A stretch of DNA of 64,000 nt. Source: Candidatus Poribacteria bacterium (GTDB lineage: Bacteria; Poribacteria; WGA-4E; WGA-3G). Shown here piece by piece: positions 3,265 to 15,209 of this stretch (positions are counted from its first letter, which is position 1; every line of letters starts with the position of its first letter). The stretch spans positions 4,800,001 to 4,864,000 of the forward strand of contig OZ243938.1 in the NCBI GenBank assembly GCA_965214095.1. The letters run 5' to 3'. The position numbers and the translations under genes were made by a program. Under the pieces are notes generated by a model. That model made no database searches and was not told where the DNA came from. It saw only the letters and a list, made by a program, of their open reading frames with translations.

Positions 3265-4209
3265 TCAAGATTCTTCCTGATTATTTAGTATATTCTTAAA
3301 TTCCTGAAGGTTTTCTATCCTCTGAACTGTTTTAAATAAATGCTTAAGCTGGTCTAAATCATCAATTTCATCAAGAAACGGTTTTAATTCTTGAACATTG
3401 TCATCTTGAAAACGATCAGCAAGTGATTCAAGAATAAGATCAATTACAACTAATATTTGTCCGCGTTCCATACCGCGTTCCATACCGCGTTCCATACCGC
3501 GCATTATTCCTTGTTCTAAACCACGTTCTTTTGCTTCCTGAATATATTCTTGAATTAAAGGAAAATCCAACCAAAAACTATCAGGGAAAGACTGTTTTAA
3601 ATTTTCCATATCATACACTAAACTACTAAATATGCCCATTGATGCAAACATAATACTCTTGATGTCCGTATCTACACCTGCATTAATCGTTGCATCTACA
3701 CATTCGTCCAACCATTGCGTTGGATTCATCCCTTGAGACGGTTTCATCAAAGGTGTAAGTGGGAGCAAACTTGGTATTTGAGCCTCCAATATTTGTTGTC
3801 CATCAATTTCATTCAACCTTATGACTTTATATTTTATTTTGTATTCACATCCATTACCATTATACTCATAGTATCCAGGATCATTTCTACCTGCCCGTGG
3901 ATGTAAGTAAAGGACACTTGTGTACACATTCAATTGATATTCTCTGATAAGAAAACCGTTATATCCAGCAATGCGGTAATGCATTGGTTCTTGGCTGTCG
4001 TGTGTCTGAAACTCATTATGGAGAATAGCAACTTCATCAGGAAATTGAACTCTTAAAGTACTATCCGTTACAGATGACTTCAGTGTAATTTGTTCAGTCG
4101 TCAGGTTTTCCAACACGGTTACATTTTGATAACCGAGAATCAATTCAGTAAAAGGTTTAGGATTATCTGTAGTTATAAATTTTGTTATATTATCGTAGTC
4201 TTGTCTCAT
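3265..4209 (-). CDS. Rpn/YhgA-like PD-(D/E)XK nuclease (putative transposase family)
   Basis: N-terminal YDNITK, D..L....AILHNEFQT nuclease-like core, LLPLTPLM, C-terminal ERG/EQG/GMER repeats and small helical domain. Confidence 0.8.
   Translation of the reverse strand: MRQDYDNITKFITTDNPKPFTELILGYQNVTVLENLTTEQITLKSSVTDSTLRVQFPDEVAILHNEFQTHDSQEPMHYRIAGYNGFLIREYQLNVYTSVLYLHPRAGRNDPGYYEYNGNGCEYKIKYKVIRLNEIDGQQILEAQIPSLLPLTPLMKPSQGMNPTQWLDECVDATINAGVDTDIKSIMFASMGIFSSLVYDMENLKQSFPDSFWLDFPLIQEYIQEAKERGLEQGIMRGMERGMERGMERGQILVVIDLILESLADRFQDDNVQELKPFLDEIDDLDQLKHLFKTVQRIENLQEFKNILNNQEES
3461..3501. repeat. 12-bp tandem repeat (ccgcgttccata x3 plus partial) encoding GMER repeats
   Basis: directly visible units at 3461, 3473, 3485 and a partial at 3497. 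Confidence 0.95.
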
Positions 4210-4216
4210 TACATAA

Positions 4217-4246
4217 AGTATACTGAAAAATTGAGGATTTTGTCAA
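4217..4246 (-). promoter_or_regulatory. sigma-70-type promoter of the Rpn-like gene (probably leaderless mRNA)
   Basis: minus strand TTGACA-N18-TATACT, then 7 nt to the ATG; no Shine-Dalgarno sequence. Confidence 0.7.
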
Positions 4247-4252
4247 GCAATT

Positions 4253-5356
4253 TTATTTGAAATTGTTTAGCAGTCTCAAATAAATCGTTTGCATTTTTTG
4301 GCTTTGTAAATCTATATTAAAACTCTCCTCTGCATGTTTTCTCCCCGCATTTCCCATTTTGTTGCAGAGTTCACGGTTATTAACAAATTGAACAATCTTA
4401 TTTGATATTGAGTCAATTGAGTCTAACGTCTCAACCCATCCTGTCACACCATCAACAATCATATCTGATGTACTACCGATTTGTGTCCCAATGACAGGTA
4501 ATCCCGATGCCATAGCCTCAGCAATGACACTGCCGGCTGATAAGGTTACTAATATATCCATCTCATGCAATGCACTTTGCATGTTGTTTTGATGTCCGGT
4601 AAACTGTATCACATTATCCAGATTGTATTTTCCGACCAATTCTCTCACTTCACGTTCATAAGCCTTATGTTTCGGAGTATCAAGTGATGACCCGATGATT
4701 TGAAATCTGACATTCTGACACTGGTTATATACCCTTGATGCTATCTCAACAAATTCTTTCTGTCGTTTGAATGGTTCAATTCGTCCCACCAATCCTACAA
4801 CAAAAAGATCAGACTGATTTTTCTCTGATATCTGTTTTGGTTGAAATTCTGACAAGTCAACACAGTTTAGAATAACATCTATTTTATTCGATGCGATACC
4901 GTGATCCAATAGAAATTCTTTGTACTGACTGGAAATAACAATAACTTGATCCATACGATCAAAGTCGTACTTAGCAATCTGTGTAGGATTGAGTATATTC
5001 CTTACATGTGAGATAACTGGAATGTTCAGACTTTTTCTCAATTGCCGAAGGTATGGATTGAACCATGAATCTGAAGTATGCACTACTTGGATATTGTAAT
5101 GTTTAGCAAAATCTATTAATTTTGAAGAAGATATATATCGGGATAGAATAGATTTAGTTTTTCGCCAATGTGGAATCTTAATAATTGTGGTATGAATATT
5201 GGCATTTCTCAACTGTTGTGCGAAAATACCATCATCAGGACAAATTACATAAGGATGGAATAATGTCTTGTCCAAATGCGTTACAAGGTAATAGAGTTGT
5301 TTTTCGCCCCCACCGATATTTGATCCACAATGACTAAGATAAAGTATAGGAATCAT
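4253..5356 (-). CDS. glycosyltransferase family 4 (GT-B fold)
   Basis: GGGEK N-terminal motif, VGRIEPFKRQ, EAMASGLPVIGT. Confidence 0.9.
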   Translation of the reverse strand: MIPILYLSHCGSNIGGGEKQLYYLVTHLDKTLFHPYVICPDDGIFAQQLRNANIHTTIIKIPHWRKTKSILSRYISSSKLIDFAKHYNIQVVHTSDSWFNPYLRQLRKSLNIPVISHVRNILNPTQIAKYDFDRMDQVIVISSQYKEFLLDHGIASNKIDVILNCVDLSEFQPKQISEKNQSDLFVVGLVGRIEPFKRQKEFVEIASRVYNQCQNVRFQIIGSSLDTPKHKAYEREVRELVGKYNLDNVIQFTGHQNNMQSALHEMDILVTLSAGSVIAEAMASGLPVIGTQIGSTSDMIVDGVTGWVETLDSIDSISNKIVQFVNNRELCNKMGNAGRKHAEESFNIDLQSQKMQTIYLRLLNNFK

Positions 5357-8987: not shown

Positions 8988-10841
8988 CTAACGCAAGTCC
9001 CATAAAAGGATAGTACCATCTCTGCTTGCACTTGCGAGTGTAGTGCCATCCGGAGAATACGCAATACAAGTAATCCCGCTCGTATGTCCTACAAGATCAA
9101 CTTTTTGCTGGTTTGTGTGTGTATCCCACAGATGCACTTTAAACCAACCCGCACCTGCGAGTGTAGTGCCATCCGGGGAATATGCCAAAGAAGCAACTCC
9201 ACTCCTCTCCCCGGTGAGAGTGGTTTTGTACTGCCCCGTGTGTGCGTCCCACAAACGCAGCCTCCCGCCCAAATCCGCACTGATGATTGTTTTTCCATCT
9301 GGGGCAAATACAATGGAAGCAATTTCCAATCTATGCCCAGTGAGAGTGGCTTTATACTGTCCTGTGTGTGCATTCCATAAACATACTGTTCTGTCCTTGC
9401 TTCCACTTGCGAGTATAGTGCCATCCGGAGAATACTCAACACAAGTGACACGCCCCGTATGTCTCGCGGGGGTGATTTTGTATTCTCCAGTCGCAACATC
9501 CCATAAAAACACACGGTTCTCCCTACCTCCACTTGCGATTGTTTCTCCATCTGGTGAAAACGCCATGGCAGTTATAGAAGTAGCAAGTCCACTACGTACA
9601 GAGAGGATGGCTTTGTGTAGTCCGGTGACCGTATCCCATAAACGTATTTCGTCCTCACTCCCACTGGCGAGTGTAGTACCATCCGGAGAATACTCAACAA
9701 AATAGACATTCTCACTGTGACCTATGAGTGTTGTTTCATGCTGTCCTGTAGCAGTATTGAACAGACGCACTGAATGATCTAAATTTGCGCTTGCGATTGT
9801 TTTTCCATCTGGTGAAAACGCGATAGAATTGACATACTTTGAATGTCCCGTCAGGGATGCCTTGTGTCTCCCTGTGATTGCATTCCATAGATGCACCGTT
9901 TCCACACTTGCGCTTGCGATTGTTTTTCCATCTGGTGAAAACGCGATGGAACGTACAGGCCCTATATGCCCTATGAGTGTTGTTTTTTTCTCTCCAGTGT
10001 GTGCATCCCACAGAAACACCGTCTTATCCTCACTTGCGCTTGCGATTGTTTTTCCATCTGGTGAAAACGCGATGGAACGTACAGGCCCTATATGCCCTAT
10101 GAGTGTTGTTTTTTTCTCTCCAGTGTGTGCATCCCACAGAAACACCGTCTTATCCTCACTCGCACTTGCGATTGTTTTTCCATCTGGAGAATACGCTATA
10201 GAAGTAACATGTCCAGTATGCCCTACGAGGATATTTTTGTGCATACCGGTGTTGGTATCCCACAGATGCACTGTATGATCTAAACTCCCGCTCACGACAG
10301 TTGTACCATCCGGTGCATAAGCTACACAAGTGATAAAACTTGCATGTCCTATAAAAACCCTTTTATGTAAACCCGTAGATAGGTCCCACAAACGTACTAC
10401 TGCATCCTCACCTCCACTTGCAAGTGTAGTCCCATCCGGAGAAAAACCTACAACTCGGACAGCATCCGAATGTCCTATAAGAGAGGCTTTGAGCTTTCTT
10501 GTGGTCGGATCCAACAGCCGTACAGTCTCATCACTCCCAGTTGCAATTGTTTTTCCATCTGGTGAAAACGCGATGGATTGGACATACCACTTATGCTTTG
10601 TGAGTAATGCATGTTCTTTGTAGGTGTGTGCATCGTATATCCAAATACCGATTGAACTTGCTACAGCGAGTTGATTACCATCTGGGGAATATACGATATT
10701 GCCAGTTATGCTACCTTTACCCAGACGAGTTTTAGCACCTTTGGGTAAACCCCATTGACTGTAATTATTGGCAAGCACGTTTGGCAATAACAAGGCAAAA
10801 AACAGGAACAAGATGACGACAAACATGTATGTCTTTTTCAT
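8988..10841 (-). CDS. secreted WD40-repeat protein (no dockerin or C-terminal domain)
   Basis: signal peptide, LPKGAKTRLGKG leader, about 13 GH...FSPDG...LWD repeats. Confidence 0.92.
   Translation of the reverse strand: MKKTYMFVVILFLFFALLLPNVLANNYSQWGLPKGAKTRLGKGSITGNIVYSPDGNQLAVASSIGIWIYDAHTYKEHALLTKHKWYVQSIAFSPDGKTIATGSDETVRLLDPTTRKLKASLIGHSDAVRVVGFSPDGTTLASGGEDAVVRLWDLSTGLHKRVFIGHASFITCVAYAPDGTTVVSGSLDHTVHLWDTNTGMHKNILVGHTGHVTSIAYSPDGKTIASASEDKTVFLWDAHTGEKKTTLIGHIGPVRSIAFSPDGKTIASASEDKTVFLWDAHTGEKKTTLIGHIGPVRSIAFSPDGKTIASASVETVHLWNAITGRHKASLTGHSKYVNSIAFSPDGKTIASANLDHSVRLFNTATGQHETTLIGHSENVYFVEYSPDGTTLASGSEDEIRLWDTVTGLHKAILSVRSGLATSITAMAFSPDGETIASGGRENRVFLWDVATGEYKITPARHTGRVTCVEYSPDGTILASGSKDRTVCLWNAHTGQYKATLTGHRLEIASIVFAPDGKTIISADLGGRLRLWDAHTGQYKTTLTGERSGVASLAYSPDGTTLAGAGWFKVHLWDTHTNQQKVDLVGHTSGITCIAYSPDGTTLASASRDGTILLWDLR
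9905..10187. repeat. 126-bp tandem repeat: two identical WD40 units plus a partial third
   Basis: units start at 9905, 10031 and 10157 (cacttgcgcttgcgattgtttttccatctgg...). Confidence 0.92.
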
Positions 10842-10984: not shown

Positions 10985-11750
10985 TATGAAGTCAACTCCT
11001 GCCTTTCCAAATCGATTGCAGATTTCATCGGCAATATCTTTATGCCCTTTCTTCGTCTTGCCTCGGATTTTAAGAGGTTGTGCAACGTTCCCTTGTTGTA
11101 CCTTGTAGGTTCTGCATTCCGAATCCAGTCCAATCTGTCAAGCAGATTAAGGTAACTCCCAACTCAATCAACTAATATAACTTCAAACTCAAGCCAGAAA
11201 CCCTGGAATTCTTCTATCCTACGTGGATCCTTCCAAGCCCCACGACGATGGACATATTTGGTGAAGTCCTTAGTGACATTTATCCACCTTTCAGCAAGTG
11301 GTGATAGTTCGTCAATTCCCAACGATTGTAGAATTGATGCTTTGTGTTTTCCTTCAATAGGTCCATACTTAATTTTTACGTTACCAGGTCTATTAATGTC
11401 AAAAGCAAAGTCACCTTTCTTCTTCTTTTTATATTGCAAGACTTCATCATCGGGTGTACTAATGGTAAACTCAAGTTCCTCTTTTATATCTTCGGACAGG
11501 ATATCCCTTAAACCCCATCAATTTCCCGTGCAATATGTGCTAATAGACTTGCCGCTGTTTCTAAACCTTCGTATTGTAAAATCCTAATCCCATCCAGATA
11601 ATAGGCAGCTATCTCAGGTCCAATAGATTTCAGGTTACGGTGAATTTCAACTTGTTGTGCGGATAACTCTACACCAAGACTTGAAGTGTCACCTGGTCCC
11701 TGCGATGAGTCATACTCATCATCAAACCCATCATTCACTTTTTCTTTCAC
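10985..11750 (-). pseudogene. degraded gene of unknown function (frameshift plus nonsense codon, truncated)
   Basis: 80-aa ORF ends ...AHIAREIDG; restoring one G in the G-run near 11515 gives DGGLRDILSEDIKEE... running into the 11164-11439 ORF; after TGA 11164 the frame continues VGSYLNLLDRLDW...LLKSEARR. Confidence 0.7.
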
Positions 11751-11885
11751 CTCTAAGTTTTAAAACTCTTTAGTCACATAATAACATACCTCAAAGCAAA
11801 TATCAACATATCTAACCATGGATATCCAAATGTGTCACTATCTGATAGACAGAAAATATGAAAACTAATACACATATCAAAATGA

Positions 11886-11914
11886 TTGACAAGGCACGAA
11901 AATCATGCTATAAT
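11886..11914 (+). promoter_or_regulatory. consensus sigma-70 promoter upstream of the rhodanese-MoeB gene
   Basis: TTGACA (11886-11891), 17-nt spacer ending in TGc, TATAAT (11909-11914). Confidence 0.85.
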
Positions 11915-12019
11915 CGTTTTAGGATTACAAAGGAATCCATAAGTTTATTTTCCACCGTTAAACACATGAAATAGTCGTAATTGACGAAAAAAGTAACCAT
12001 ATACTTTGGAGAACCATTT

Positions 12020-13207
12020 ATGAAATCGTATAGGCAAATCGTAGAGGAGGCAAAAACAGAGATTCCAGAAGTCACAGCCACAGACGTTAAAGAAGACAAG
12101 GAAAACGGAAGTGACTTTGTCCTGTTGGATGTGCGCGATGAAGATGAATACCGTGCGGGTTATATACCCGATGCTGTTCACGTAACTCGTGGGATGCTGG
12201 AATTCTCTGTTGAAGATTACATTCCGGACCGAGATCAAAAGGTAGTGGTGTATTGTGCTGCTGGATCACGTTCACTCCTCGCTGCAAAATCCCTGCGTGA
12301 GATGGGATATACAGATACCGTATCCATGGCGGGTGGATACAGAGGCTGGTCTACTGCTGGATTCCCAACTGCACAAGATAAAGAGATGTCACATGATCAA
12401 CTTGACAGATATAGTCGTCACTTCATGCTTACCGAAGTCGGTGAACGCGGACAAGCAAAGCTACTTGATGCGAAAGTGTTACTCGTCGGTGCTGGTGGGT
12501 TAGGTTCGCCTGCTGGTGTATATCTTGGTGCTGCTGGTATAGGACAGATGGGGATTATTGACTCAGATGTTGTGGAGTTGAGCAACCTACAACGTCAGAT
12601 CCTTCACCGCACAGAAGCAGTTGGCACCCCGAAAGTTCAGTCGGCAACTACAACGATAAAATCACTCAATCCAGATGTTGAGATTACACCGTATAACCTT
12701 CGACTCACTGCAGACAATGTTGAGGAGATATTCTCTGAATACGATCTGATTGTTGATGGATGCGACAACTTCGCAACGCGATTCCTTGTCAACGATGCTG
12801 CTGTGCTGATGAATAAACCGATTGTGCATGGTAGTATTTTTCAGTTTGAGGGGCAAGTATCGCTCTTTAAACCCAACGAAGGTCCCTGCTACCGATGCAT
12901 GTATCCTACGCCTCCACCACCCGGCTTGGTGCCAAGCTGAAGTGAAGCCGGTGTCCTGGGCGTGCTCCCAGGCGTAATTGGCGTGATGATGGCAACTGAA
13001 GCGATCAAGTATATTCTTGGTCTCGGTGAACCGCTTATCGGTAGGCTAATCCTTTATGATGCACTTAGTATGACTTATCGCGAAATGAAAGTCCCTCGTG
13101 ATGAAAATTGCCCACTATGCGGTGAAAATCCGAGTATAACAAAACTGATTGAAGATTACGATGCAGCAGCTGAAAATCCTGAAACCTTCGCTCCTGCCGC
13201 TGATTGA
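12020..13207 (+). CDS. moeB: rhodanese-MoeB/ThiF (MoeZ-like) sulfur-carrier adenylyltransferase, probable selenoprotein (UGA at 12938-12940)
   Basis: N-terminal rhodanese (YCAAGSRS), RYSRH, GAGGLG, SNLQRQ, CYRC and CPLC zinc motifs; ORFs 11981-12940 and 12962-13207 are in one frame and read PPPGLVPS*SEAGVLGVLPG; ATG 12020 follows GGAG. Confidence 0.88.
12947..12982 (+). promoter_or_regulatory. candidate bacterial SECIS hairpin
   Basis: CCTGGG (12955-12960) pairs with CCCAGG (12967-12972) around loop CGTGCT; lower stem closes GCC/GGC with a bulged U; loop starts about 20 nt after the UGA. Confidence 0.7.
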
Positions 13208-13230
13208 TTTTGTCTGATCTGTGGATTATA

Positions 13231-13371
13231 TTATAGCAAAAAATCATAATTACTTACACACTACGGTAGGTTCGGTTTCCTAACCGAACCGGTGTTTGTT
13301 CAGTGTTATAGATGCGGTTAGGAAACCGCATCTACCTGGGAGTGTGGACGTAATTTTACATTTCACTATAA
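13231..13371. mobile_element. MITE-like element family 1 carrying an inverted pair of GTAG REP hairpins
   Basis: ends TTATAGCAAA / TTTCACTATAA; internal GGTAGGTTCGGTTTCCTAACCGAACC and inverted GATGCGGTTAGGAAACCGCATCTACC; near-identical copies at 43123 and 51551. Confidence 0.85.
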
Positions 13372-13386
13372 GAGTTGGTGATTGGC

Positions 13387-14679
13387 ATGATTACCCATAT
13401 TCGAATGAAAAACTTCAAATCATGGAAAGATAGTGGTGAGGTCCAACTTGCACCTTTGACTGGCTTTTTCGGGACAAATAGTTCTGGGAAGAGTAGTCTG
13501 TTGCAGATGCTGCTATTGCTTAAACAGACTGCAGAGAGGAAAGATGCAGAGGAAGTTATTTTTTTTGGTGATGAAACTTCTTATGTAAATCTCAGAGATT
13601 TTCGCGAGGTGATTCATGAACATGACCCTGGAAATGAACTATATTTTATGATAGAGGCTGCAGTCAGTTCTCCGAATTTAATCAAAGATTGGGCACTTAT
13701 GCCTATATCTAGGTTTACTTTTGAGACAGAAATCATTGAGAATAGAGACAAACTATGTGTTAATTCTTTATGCTATAAAAGTCTATATAATAACACTAAA
13801 TACTCATGGCAATCGGAGCACACAGTGAATAATGATGAAAATACTTCTGACATCAATATAAAGAGCTGCTACGGTCTTACATCCTCAAAAGATATTGAAG
13901 AATCAGAAATGCTTGATACTTTTTCATCAGGATTTGAGCTACACTTTTCTCATGTATTCTATCTTGGTCCTATTCGCGCACATCCACAAAGACAGTATCA
14001 TTGGGAAGGCGATCATCCTAAAGATATTGGTAAATTGGGGGATAAAACAATTGACGCTTTACTCTCTGCACGTATTGATAGAAAAACAATTCTATACGAC
14101 GAGGGAGAAGTATCAATTGAGGAGAGAATATCTGAATGGTTACGTGAAATGAAACTTGCCAATTCTTTTATGTTAGAACGATCAAACAATCATAATGGTA
14201 AAGATTATGATGTCCGTATCCAGATGAAAGAAGATGGTCCAAAAATTGCACTTGCTGATATGGGGTATGGATTATCCCAATTTTTACCCGTTTTAGTTCT
14301 CTGCTACTATGCTCCTGAAGGTTCAACCTTGATTCTGGAACAACCAGGAATTCACCTACATCCGATGGTTCAAGCACAACTTGCTGACCTACTGATAGAA
14401 GTTGTCAACGAACGAAAATTACAAATCTTGGTGGAAAGTCATAGTGAACATCTATTGTCGCGTTTGCAGTTGCGAGTAGCAGAAGAAAAAATTGCAGCAA
14501 ATCAGACGGCACTCTATTTCTGTGAAAATGAGAATGGAACATCTAAAATCAAGTCGCTTGAGTTAGATGATCTTGGCAATATTACAAATTGGCCAAAAAA
14601 CTTTTTTGGTAATGTGAGAGGTGATCTTACGAAAATGGCACGTCTACAGATAAAGCGGCAGAAGGAAGCAGAGGGTTAA
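13387..14679 (+). CDS. ABC-type ATPase (AAA_21/AAA_15-like) with DUF3696-like C-terminus
   Basis: MKNFKSW, Walker A GTNSSGKSS, DMGYGLSQFLP, ILEQPGIHLHP, VESHSEH, C-terminal NWPKNFF. Confidence 0.88.
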   Translation: MITHIRMKNFKSWKDSGEVQLAPLTGFFGTNSSGKSSLLQMLLLLKQTAERKDAEEVIFFGDETSYVNLRDFREVIHEHDPGNELYFMIEAAVSSPNLIKDWALMPISRFTFETEIIENRDKLCVNSLCYKSLYNNTKYSWQSEHTVNNDENTSDINIKSCYGLTSSKDIEESEMLDTFSSGFELHFSHVFYLGPIRAHPQRQYHWEGDHPKDIGKLGDKTIDALLSARIDRKTILYDEGEVSIEERISEWLREMKLANSFMLERSNNHNGKDYDVRIQMKEDGPKIALADMGYGLSQFLPVLVLCYYAPEGSTLILEQPGIHLHPMVQAQLADLLIEVVNERKLQILVESHSEHLLSRLQLRVAEEKIAANQTALYFCENENGTSKIKSLELDDLGNITNWPKNFFGNVRGDLTKMARLQIKRQKEAEG

Positions 14680-15209
14680 TGTCAGCAGTTGTTATAGATA
14701 CAAATGTGATCCTTGTCGCAAAAGGTATGTCTGAACAGGCTTGGGACGAATGTGTAGTAACATGTCAGGAACGATTAGATAAGATTATTGATGGTAGCGA
14801 AAAAGTCGTAATTGATGATCAAAGGTTAATACTCGGAGAATATTTAGATTACCTTGATGAGGATGATACAACAACCAATGGACGTAATAGCGGTCACTTT
14901 TTGGAATGGTTCATAAGAAACTATCAGAATCCAGAGCAATGTATACAAGTGAATATTTCACCAACCGACCATTTGCGCGGTTTTGAAGAATTACCCGACG
15001 TATTCATAAACTTTGACTCTGACGACAAGAAGTTTATTGCAGTATCAGTCGTATATGAAAATGAATACCAGCAAAAGACTACTATTCTACAATCGGTTGA
15101 TAGCCAATGGTATGGATTAAGAAGTGTATTCATTGAGTATGGTTTGGTTATAGAATTTCTCTGCGAAGATAATATCCGTCACATTTACGAAAGACGTGAG
15201 AGTAGGTGA
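14679..15209 (+). CDS. PIN-domain-like putative nuclease
   Basis: VVIDTNV, ILGEY and FDSDDKKFIAV acidic motifs; start overlaps the ATPase stop. Confidence 0.75.
   Translation: MSAVVIDTNVILVAKGMSEQAWDECVVTCQERLDKIIDGSEKVVIDDQRLILGEYLDYLDEDDTTTNGRNSGHFLEWFIRNYQNPEQCIQVNISPTDHLRGFEELPDVFINFDSDDKKFIAVSVVYENEYQQKTTILQSVDSQWYGLRSVFIEYGLVIEFLCEDNIRHIYERRESR

Follow-up and report, generated by a model that had tools for sequence, protein, structure and literature searches.

Does an in-frame TGA in a Candidatus Poribacteria gene for a rhodanese-MoeB enzyme end the protein, or is it read as selenocysteine (Sec)? The question is raised by positions 12020-13207 on the forward strand of a 64,000-nucleotide stretch of contig OZ243938.1 (assembly GCA_965214095.1), here called the window. 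According to database records, near-identical loci belong to Candidatus Poribacteria metagenome-assembled genomes (MAGs) of sponge symbionts. An earlier note on this DNA had proposed that two open reading frames (ORFs) in the same frame, split only by the TGA at 12938-12940, together encode a 395-residue Sec-containing enzyme of the activating (E1) type with an N-terminal Cys rhodanese domain. We favour the reading that 12020-13207 is one monocistronic gene encoding a selenoprotein of 395 residues. The proposal is supported by the domains of the protein, the Cys column of its homologues, the conservation of the TGA and of a hairpin after it, and the Sec machinery of the genome; from these comparisons we infer the insertion of Sec itself, and consider it highly probable that this is a true Sec-encoding rhodanese-MoeB gene.

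Sec-MoeB proteins have been reported before, as the earlier note had rightly cautioned with regard to metagenomic surveys. A "Molybdopterin biosynthesis MoeB protein" is given as a new selenoprotein family with 11 sequences in the available text of the 2005 Sargasso Sea survey (PMC1088965), 19 Sec-MoeB sequences are given in that of the 2008 Global Ocean Sampling selenoproteome (PMC2398784), and the family is listed, with MBT7809913.1 as its representative, in the accessible parts of two reviews (PMC9312934, PMC13188914). The existence of Sec-MoeB is thus already known. What is added here is an order-wide Poribacteria clade, a form with an N-terminal rhodanese domain, the equivalence of its Sec residue with the thioester Cys of Uba4, and evidence for a Sec insertion sequence (SECIS) element that is controlled by a Cys paralogue.

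Results and Discussion

An in-frame TGA interrupts a rhodanese-MoeB reading frame

The TGA at 12938-12940 is the sole interruption in a frame that runs from the ATG at 12020 to a terminal TGA at 13205-13207, which confirms the two same-frame ORFs noted earlier, and the frame reads PPPGLVPS-TGA-SEAGVLGVLPGVIG at the internal stop. The first 306 codons (12020-12937) encode a rhodanese domain and most of a ThiF/MoeB domain, and the last 88 codons with the terminal TGA stop (12941-13207) contain the second CxxC motif of a zinc site. Read through, the product is a 395-residue protein of rhodanese plus ThiF/MoeB. Its rhodanese domain occupies residues 20-112 (12077-12355; Pfam PF00581, E 9.8e-20) and has the active-site loop CAAGSRS, whose Cys79 (codon at 12254-12256) is invariant in 100 of 100 distinct orthologues. 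The ThiF/MoeB adenylation domain, at residues 131-365 (12410-13114; PF00899, E 3e-85), spans the TGA; the match scores 285.6 bits against a cut-off of 28.1 and runs across the TGA from profile position 1 to 237 of 238. The NCBIfam model NF006444 (rhodanese-N plus MoeB) matches at 537.1 bits (cut-off 449) over positions 4-383 of 387. The sequence GAGGLGSPAG aligns with the glycine-rich nucleotide-binding loops of MoeB and ThiF.

The zinc site is divided by the TGA. Its first CxxC, CYRC (C290 and C293; 12887-12898), lies upstream and aligns with the CYRC of Escherichia coli MoeB (1jw9_B), and its second, the CPLC that the earlier note had placed downstream of the TGA, is indeed found there at 13109-13120 (C364 at 13109-13111, C367 at 13118-13120). 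C290 and C293 are present in all 100 distinct orthologues and C364 and C367 in 98 of them, so that a stop after residue 306 would yield a product without two of the four conserved zinc cysteines.

If the TGA were a true stop, the locus would be a pseudogene or two genes, encoding 306 and approximately 81 residues. Gene callers do produce the shorter product. Among the 120 best database matches, 29 are fragments of 306-307 residues ending in VPS or VPG, the sole truncated entry with an NCBI name being a "ThiF family adenylyltransferase". These fragments correspond to the Poribacteria gene truncated at the TGA, and entries that end at 306 residues are the kind of mis-annotation that had been anticipated. 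Against a true stop, the downstream ORF lacks a start codon of its own at the junction and first offers one, GTG, at 12962; moreover, the stop falls within both the ThiF profile match and the span of the zinc site.

The TGA is fixed among Poribacteria orthologues

In 41 related genomes, which represent 8 genera from 4 families of a single order, the best match is 60-100% identical and in every case contains a single stop codon, which is TGA. When the column was read directly, TGA was found in 30 of 30 and 11 of 11 related-genome loci and in 80 of 80 species-representative loci. All 121 orthologues thus carry TGA at this column; they comprise 100 distinct sequences, and the related-genome and species-representative sources overlap. 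In all orthologues read, the TGA is preceded by Ser or Gly and followed by Ser or Asn-Glu-Ala-Gly. The case in which relatives all have TGC or TGT, named in advance as evidence against Sec, is therefore not what is found.

Among the 159 genomes that belong to the window's order, a scan of the phylum (176 genomes) revealed a full-length orthologue in 153, and each of the 150 orthologues among the matches listed has one TGA. Only a paralogue, described below, was found in the six remaining genomes of the order (G097, G124, G146, G058, G062 and G070), whose completeness is 73-95%. Of 17 genomes from other orders or classes of the phylum, 7 have a match at the level of the paralogue only and 10 have no match at E <= 1e-100.

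The 88 codons past the TGA retain 52-83% amino-acid identity to the window copy, with 27-35 synonymous differences per comparison. This pattern indicates that the segment downstream of the TGA is under coding constraint. Likewise, the comparisons across genomes indicate that the TGA is a fixed feature, and neither a private mutation nor an error. A stop that is fixed at the same column in four families and is followed by a frame conserved with synonymous changes is not expected of a pseudogene or of two genes, and a nonsense mutation would leave the synonymous sites after it free to vary, unlike what is described below for the codons past the TGA. We consider a true stop to have next to no likelihood.

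Homologues carry cysteine at the column of the TGA

A shorter MoeB paralogue that lacks the rhodanese domain and is approximately 62% identical is present in every related genome. Its codon at the column is TGC or TGT in 20 of 20 copies fetched, 19 of which were identified by motif search and one (L147, PNCQEAGV) by eye. The window's own genome carries this Cys paralogue in addition to the Sec gene. Additionally, the 120 best database matches include 91 full-length proteins (50-65% identical). The column holds Cys in 90 of these, and the remaining protein does not fit the motif. The closest of these Cys homologues are 58-65% identical and approximately 396 residues long, and the named hosts of full-length Cys homologues include Nitrospinota, Binatia and Margulisiibacteriota MAGs. 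The alignment with homologues that the earlier note had suggested therefore places the TGA in a Cys column, in both full-length homologues and paralogues.

The genome encodes a selenocysteine system

The assembly (5.25 Mb in four contigs, 41% G+C) contains selA, selB, selC and selD, all of which had been named as a check on the Sec reading. Protein matches to selA (539 bits, at C1:340361), selB (355 bits, C1:4987445-4989340; locus L003) and selD (361 bits, C1:1272212-1273138; locus L011) each exceed the curated cut-off. The selB gene lies approximately 125 kb past the end of the window and is followed after about 155 nucleotides by the gene for tRNA-Sec(UCA) (selC), at C1:4989496-4989589. The selD frame has its own in-frame TGA, in the context VKCAG-TGA-ASKLAPGEL, which identifies it as a predicted selenoprotein gene of the Sec type. 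As a side observation on the assembly, contig C2 (32,066 bases) has 64% G+C, compared with 41% in the chromosome contig, and has zero tRNA genes; it is possibly foreign or mis-binned.

A different possibility is that the UGA is read by a standard tRNA (Trp or Cys) or as a sense codon, with selenium uninvolved. Nothing in the present data speaks for either possibility. Near-cognate read-through of UGA does occur at a low level in bacteria. Among 98 orthologues, however, the terminators are TGA in 19, TAA in 63 and TAG in 16, and since TGA ends the window gene as well as these 19, the genetic code is standard. The genome has a complete Sec system that includes tRNA-Sec, homologues have Cys here, the residue that usually takes the place of Sec, and a conserved RNA hairpin follows the codon. 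Decoding by a standard tRNA is accordingly very improbable, and insertion of Sec remains the reading that we favour.

A conserved SECIS-like hairpin follows the UGA

A SECIS element is described in the available text of PMC1088965 as a stem-loop that lies shortly past the UGA and has G in its small apical loop. The GC-rich hairpin that had been pointed out approximately 20 nucleotides after the UGA is present at 12955-12972 and agrees with this description. Its predicted 6-bp apical stem, CCUGGG (12955-12960) paired with CCCAGG (12967-12972), starts 14 nucleotides after the UGA, and its 6-nucleotide loop CGUGCU (12961-12966), which starts 20 nucleotides after it, contains G. The "bulged U" that had been placed below the stem was not borne out; in the predicted fold, an internal loop instead separates the apical stem from a weak lower stem. 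This possible lower helix, GCCGGU (12947-12952) with AUUGGC (12977-12982), was rejected as a conserved part of the element, as relatives pair in only 70% of cells and there are zero compensatory changes.

Synonymous diversity was expressed as codon entropy over 161 conserved four- or sixfold degenerate codons in the 100 distinct orthologues, for which the mean is 1.60 bits. The hairpin codons V312 to G318 have entropies of 0.53, 0.14, 0, 0, 0.16, 0.37 and 0.76 bits. Together with that of Ser306, these are the lowest values in the gene, with the exception of Ser272 (0.50 bits), which falls between Pro317 and Val312. The rare changes that do occur in the stem in Poribacteria are mostly C-to-U or A-to-G and keep a wobble pair. 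The Cys paralogue provides a control, for there the corresponding GV[FL]GVLPG is written with GGT or GGC, with GTG, GTC, GTA or GTT, with TTA, CTC, CTG or TTG, and with CCC, CCT, CCG or CCA. The synonymous sites of the hairpin are thus frozen in relatives of the window gene, and a hairpin is also found in other Sec-MoeB lineages (see below), as would be expected of a conserved element.

The codon directly before the UGA (12935-12937) is AGC in 92 of the 93 orthologues that have Ser there, with an entropy of 0.09 bits. This suggests that the 5' context of the putative Sec codon is also constrained.

Sec forms occur outside Poribacteria

A metagenome collection was scanned with the degenerate pattern P-x-UGA-x-E-x-G-V-x-G-x-L-P-G, from which the Poribacteria-specific CTC codon was excluded. 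At least 120 stretches with UGA at the column were recovered. The 80 loci examined among these all proved to be homologues of MoeB, with similarity that extends to either side of the TGA; one of them (L158) is a short end fragment. The pattern biases the set toward GVxGxLPG subfamilies and away from CTC, so that prevalence is not measurable from it; the Sec form is nevertheless widespread. Pfam matches on examples revealed two domain orders. Rhodanese-ThiF forms, 51-65% identical, come from soil and other samples, and ThiF-rhodanese forms, which have the domain order of MoeZ and Uba4, include TARA ocean contigs. Every complete Sec form found carries a rhodanese domain, at either the N or the C terminus.

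Most metagenomic Sec forms have a hairpin at this location too, in a different sequence and a shifted register; examples are CCUGGG-AGUUUUG-CCCGGG and GCUGGG-GGUCUUG-CCCGGC. One clade has a different stem further upstream. When 58 distinct sequences were aligned without gaps, 93.7% of cells in the apical helix were paired. For the structure as a whole the figure is 82.9%, and it falls to 30-55% if the 3' partners are displaced by 1-3 columns. The wobble bases of Val312 and Gly318 make up the outer pair, which is CG in 28 sequences, GC in 14, AU in 2, GU in 1, and unpaired in 13.

Several observations weigh against assigning a SECIS function to the hairpin. The fold energy of 12930-13000 is ordinary (z = -0.55), with 56 of 200 shuffled sequences folding as well. 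The Poribacteria hairpin is invariant and thus displays conservation without covariation, and the covariation seen in other lineages rests on one base pair, at which 13 of 58 sequences are unpaired. Furthermore, the minimum free energy fold downstream of the UGA in the genome's selD is unlike the moeB hairpin, so that a motif common to both for SelB is not established. The predicted element is supported by conservation, not by thermodynamics.

The relationships of Sec and Cys forms were examined in a FastTree phylogeny of 145 rows (9 Poribacteria, 46 metagenomic Sec and 90 Cys forms), in which the Sec column was entered as X, counted as a gap, in Sec rows and as C in Cys rows. The Poribacteria proteins form one all-Sec clade with a Shimodaira-Hasegawa-like support of 100. 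At least 6 changes between Sec and Cys are needed to explain the whole tree, and well-supported branches make at least 3 of these unavoidable. One Sec clade sits within a set of Cys proteins, at branch lengths of approximately 0.02. These results come from a quick method and a tree with seven fragmentary rows and several long branches.

A possible covalent role for residue 307

In HMMER alignments, from which the residue numbers were counted, U307 aligns with C187 of E. coli MoeB (1jw9_B) and C184 of ThiF (1zud_1). It also aligns with the Cys of TSCGEAG in Chaetomium Uba4, at index 200 of chain 6yub_A, which is C202 of the Uba4 paper. The UGA therefore occupies the E1 cysteine position, as had been claimed for it, and falls in the column of the Uba4 crossover-loop Cys. 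The available text of PMC7527816 describes C202 of Uba4 as a residue of the crossover loop that forms a thioester with Urm1; the rhodanese persulfide (C397) then displaces the thioester to give a thiocarboxylate, and C202 is also credited with resolving reactive intermediates. In the accessible part of PMC6007339, the thioester at yeast C225 is reported to be indispensable for inter-domain transfer, and MoeB/MoaD is described as thioester-free.

A relay of the Uba4 type can be proposed for the Poribacteria enzyme. The UGA at 12938-12940 would be decoded as U307, aided by the hairpin at 12955-12972 and by the genome's SelA, SelB, tRNA-Sec and SelD. By analogy with Uba4, the ThiF domain would adenylate the C-terminal glycine of a sulfur carrier of the ThiS/MoaD type, U307 in a flexible crossover loop would attack the acyl-adenylate to form a selenoester in place of the thioester, and the persulfide of rhodanese Cys79 would take the acyl group, such that the carrier is released as a thiocarboxylate. 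Selenium would replace sulfur as both the nucleophile and the leaving group of the covalent step. We favour such a relay because all complete Sec forms are fused to rhodanese and because Cys79 is invariant, and, on this analogy, regard it as about an even bet. Two considerations count against it. E. coli MoeB is reportedly thioester-free, so the aligned Cys is non-catalytic in some family members, and Uba4 carries its rhodanese domain at the C terminus, not at the N terminus as here, so that the geometry of Uba4 may not transfer.

Alternatively, Sec may be inserted and U307 may serve as a resolving or protective redox residue, not as the acyl-accepting nucleophile. The main chemistry would then be adenylation followed by direct persulfide attack, as in E. 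coli MoeB, and U307 would either cleave an acyl-disulfide between the carrier and the rhodanese domain or react with the carrier thiocarboxylate to give a ThiF-type mixed selenium-sulfur (Se-S) adduct. The alignment of U307 with C184 of ThiF, a residue that forms an acyl-disulfide with ThiS, is just as good. The description of MoeB/MoaD as lacking a thioester, in the accessible part of PMC6007339, also fits this alternative. On the other side, the complete Sec forms are all fused to rhodanese, although the search pattern favoured such subfamilies, and a rhodanese fusion is, according to the same partial source (PMC6007339), the arrangement in which the thioester is needed for inter-domain transfer. 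We regard a redox role as possible and rather unlikely, and retain the selenoester relay as the working proposal.

A more speculative extension, to which we attach little probability, is that the crossover-loop Sec is tied specifically to rhodanese-fused carrier activators. There it may alter the relay, by way of a selenoester and then a Se-S resolved intermediate, and make thiocarboxylation faster or oxygen-tolerant in an aerobic sponge symbiont. At its boldest, this idea would have selenium loaded onto the carrier to give a selenocarboxylate for selenium trafficking. In its favour, Sec has persisted across an order of Poribacteria in genomes that also encode a Cys paralogue, and Sec and Cys have been exchanged at least three to six times in the family, which argues for a functional weight of the choice of residue.

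Candidate clients of the enzyme were sought among sulfur carriers. The genome has four ThiS-family carrier genes, found in moaD-moaE, in thiS-thiG (on the thiO/thiG side), beside a gene for a protein resembling 3'-phosphoadenosine 5'-phosphosulfate (PAPS) reductase, and beside a molybdenum hydroxylase gene; none of these four adjoins the Sec-MoeB gene. In order along C1, the four carrier genes lie at 593039, 1027489, 1567147 and 3757097. The one beside the PAPS-reductase-like gene (C1:593039-593299; locus L275) directly follows the PAPS-reductase-domain gene. The two could be a pair for carrier-dependent sulfur assimilation or thiolation, and one of the genome's two MoeB-type enzymes may have this carrier as its client.

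Relation to known enzymes

The published Sec-MoeB family resembles the protein described here in that its members belong to the ThiF/MoeB family, have a single in-frame UGA followed by a stem-loop, and have numerous homologues with Cys. It differs in what has been recorded, as the available survey text gives no Sec position, domain order or mechanism and does not name Poribacteria. The metagenomic forms with UGA at the U307 column are most simply members of the published family, whose Sec column we infer to be the same.

NF006444 (PRK08762, a rhodanese-N plus MoeB protein called "molybdopterin-synthase adenylyltransferase MoeB") matches over its full length with the same domain order. The window protein differs from it by Sec in place of Cys at residue 307, and a role in molybdenum cofactor synthesis is implied by the name only; the genome also has the plain Cys-MoeB paralogue and the four ThiS-family carriers. 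Fusions of the Uba4/MOCS3/MoeZ type (PDB 6yub, 6z6s) likewise have adenylation and rhodanese domains in one chain, with the crossover-loop Cys at the U307 column, but their rhodanese domain is C-terminal and the residue is Cys, whereas here the rhodanese domain is N-terminal and the residue would be Sec. We considered filing the protein as a MoeZ/Uba4 enzyme and rejected this, because its rhodanese-ThiF order lacks the C-terminal rhodanese domain of that family, which serves as a working model only. The second metagenomic Sec set does share the Uba4-like C-terminal rhodanese domain. E. coli MoeB (1jw9) and ThiF (1zud) match at approximately 200 bits over the whole ThiF domain and have the four zinc cysteines, with C187 and C184 at the U307 column; in contrast to the window protein, both lack a rhodanese domain, and MoeB reportedly needs no thioester.

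Searches of the open-access literature returned, among the papers listed, nothing relevant by title that joined selenocysteine with MoeZ, and nothing that joined selenoprotein, adenylyltransferase, rhodanese and sulfur carrier. The accessible text of the papers found lists Sec-MoeB without discussing Sec at the thioester position. The natural occurrence of Sec and Cys versions of an E1 active site, as paralogues within one cell, offers a system for probing the covalent step. At least 153 Poribacteria genomes have the enzyme, which is stored as a 306-residue fragment without half of its zinc site. As a result of these truncated entries, pathway reconstructions of sponge symbionts that concern molybdenum cofactor, thiamin, thiolated tRNA, or cysteine made via carriers miss or misjudge the enzyme. 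These findings also add to a sparse record of selenium use in Poribacteria, a phylum that the available text of earlier work names among those with Sec-type group 4 hydrogenases.

Flanking signals, RNA libraries and neighbourhood

The perfect sigma-70 promoter that the earlier note had seen before the gene is present at 11886-11914 (forward strand) as a promoter-like site, TTGACA-17 nt-TATAAT, which matches at 12 of 12 positions and has a TG before the -10 element. A perfect TTGACA-N16-18-TATAAT occurs within 200 nucleotides upstream in 64 of 76 orthologous loci. A Shine-Dalgarno-like GGAGAA (12008-12013, by sequence reading) ends 6 nucleotides before the ATG, and GGAGAA or GGAGAT precedes the ATG in the 25 orthologue upstream sequences read. 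The leader that follows the promoter is approximately 105 nucleotides long or more, and its sequence varies between subclades (orthologous loci L043-L122); in the window it contains a small hairpin, GGATT-ACAAAGG-AATCC, downstream of the -10 element. Regulation through the leader is possible. An Rfam scan of 11000-13500 (E <= 1) had no match, neither to a known riboswitch in the leader nor to a SECIS element.

A terminator-like hairpin with a 9-bp stem and a T-rich tail lies downstream of the gene at 13269-13290 (forward strand) and is a copy of a dispersed palindromic repeat. Two palindromic repeat units, GGTTCGGTTTCCTAACCGAACC and GATGCGGTTAGGAAACCGCATCTA, directly follow the gene at 13258-13335. 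With up to 2 mismatches on both strands, the first matches the genome 366 times and the second 148 times, each copy probably being counted twice since the units are palindromes. The repeats look like a dispersed element of the repetitive extragenic palindromic (REP) type that doubles as the terminator-like hairpin.

Three metatranscriptome runs of one study (X1-X3) provided assembled contigs from a strain that is about 94% alike. Contigs cover both halves of the gene, with a depth in X1 of 108-115 before the TGA and 74 after it. Among the contigs listed, none reaches at least 31 letters past the TGA in both directions, and their ends or starts fall at 12946-12964, within the stretch that is invariant between strains; as assembled contigs of RNA libraries that possibly contain DNA, they cannot show transcription or read-through. 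Within the repeat region, the stretch 13258-13311 reaches a summed contig depth of 3554-4840 in the three libraries, compared with approximately 100 for the gene.

Synteny across 80 orthologous loci (3-kb flanks) gave no clue to a pathway, as the neighbours are not conserved. Counterparts of the window's neighbours were found in 1 locus for the WD40 protein, in 3 and 3 for small ORFs, in 18 for the AAA_15 protein, in 16 for a 176-residue ORF, in 13 for an ABC permease, and in 6 for a LamG protein. Upstream of the gene, 8988-10841 (reverse strand) encodes a 617-residue protein made almost entirely of WD40 repeats (13 repeat matches). Downstream, 13375-15209 holds a two-gene module, in which a 434-residue AAA_15/AAA_21/DUF3696 ATPase matches PADLOC HEC-03B (E 7e-111) and the overlapping 176-residue ORF matches HEC-03A (E 4e-23). 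HEC-03 is a candidate anti-phage system. Its two genes accompany the Sec-MoeB gene in just 18 and 16 of the 80 loci, which points to a variable insertion.

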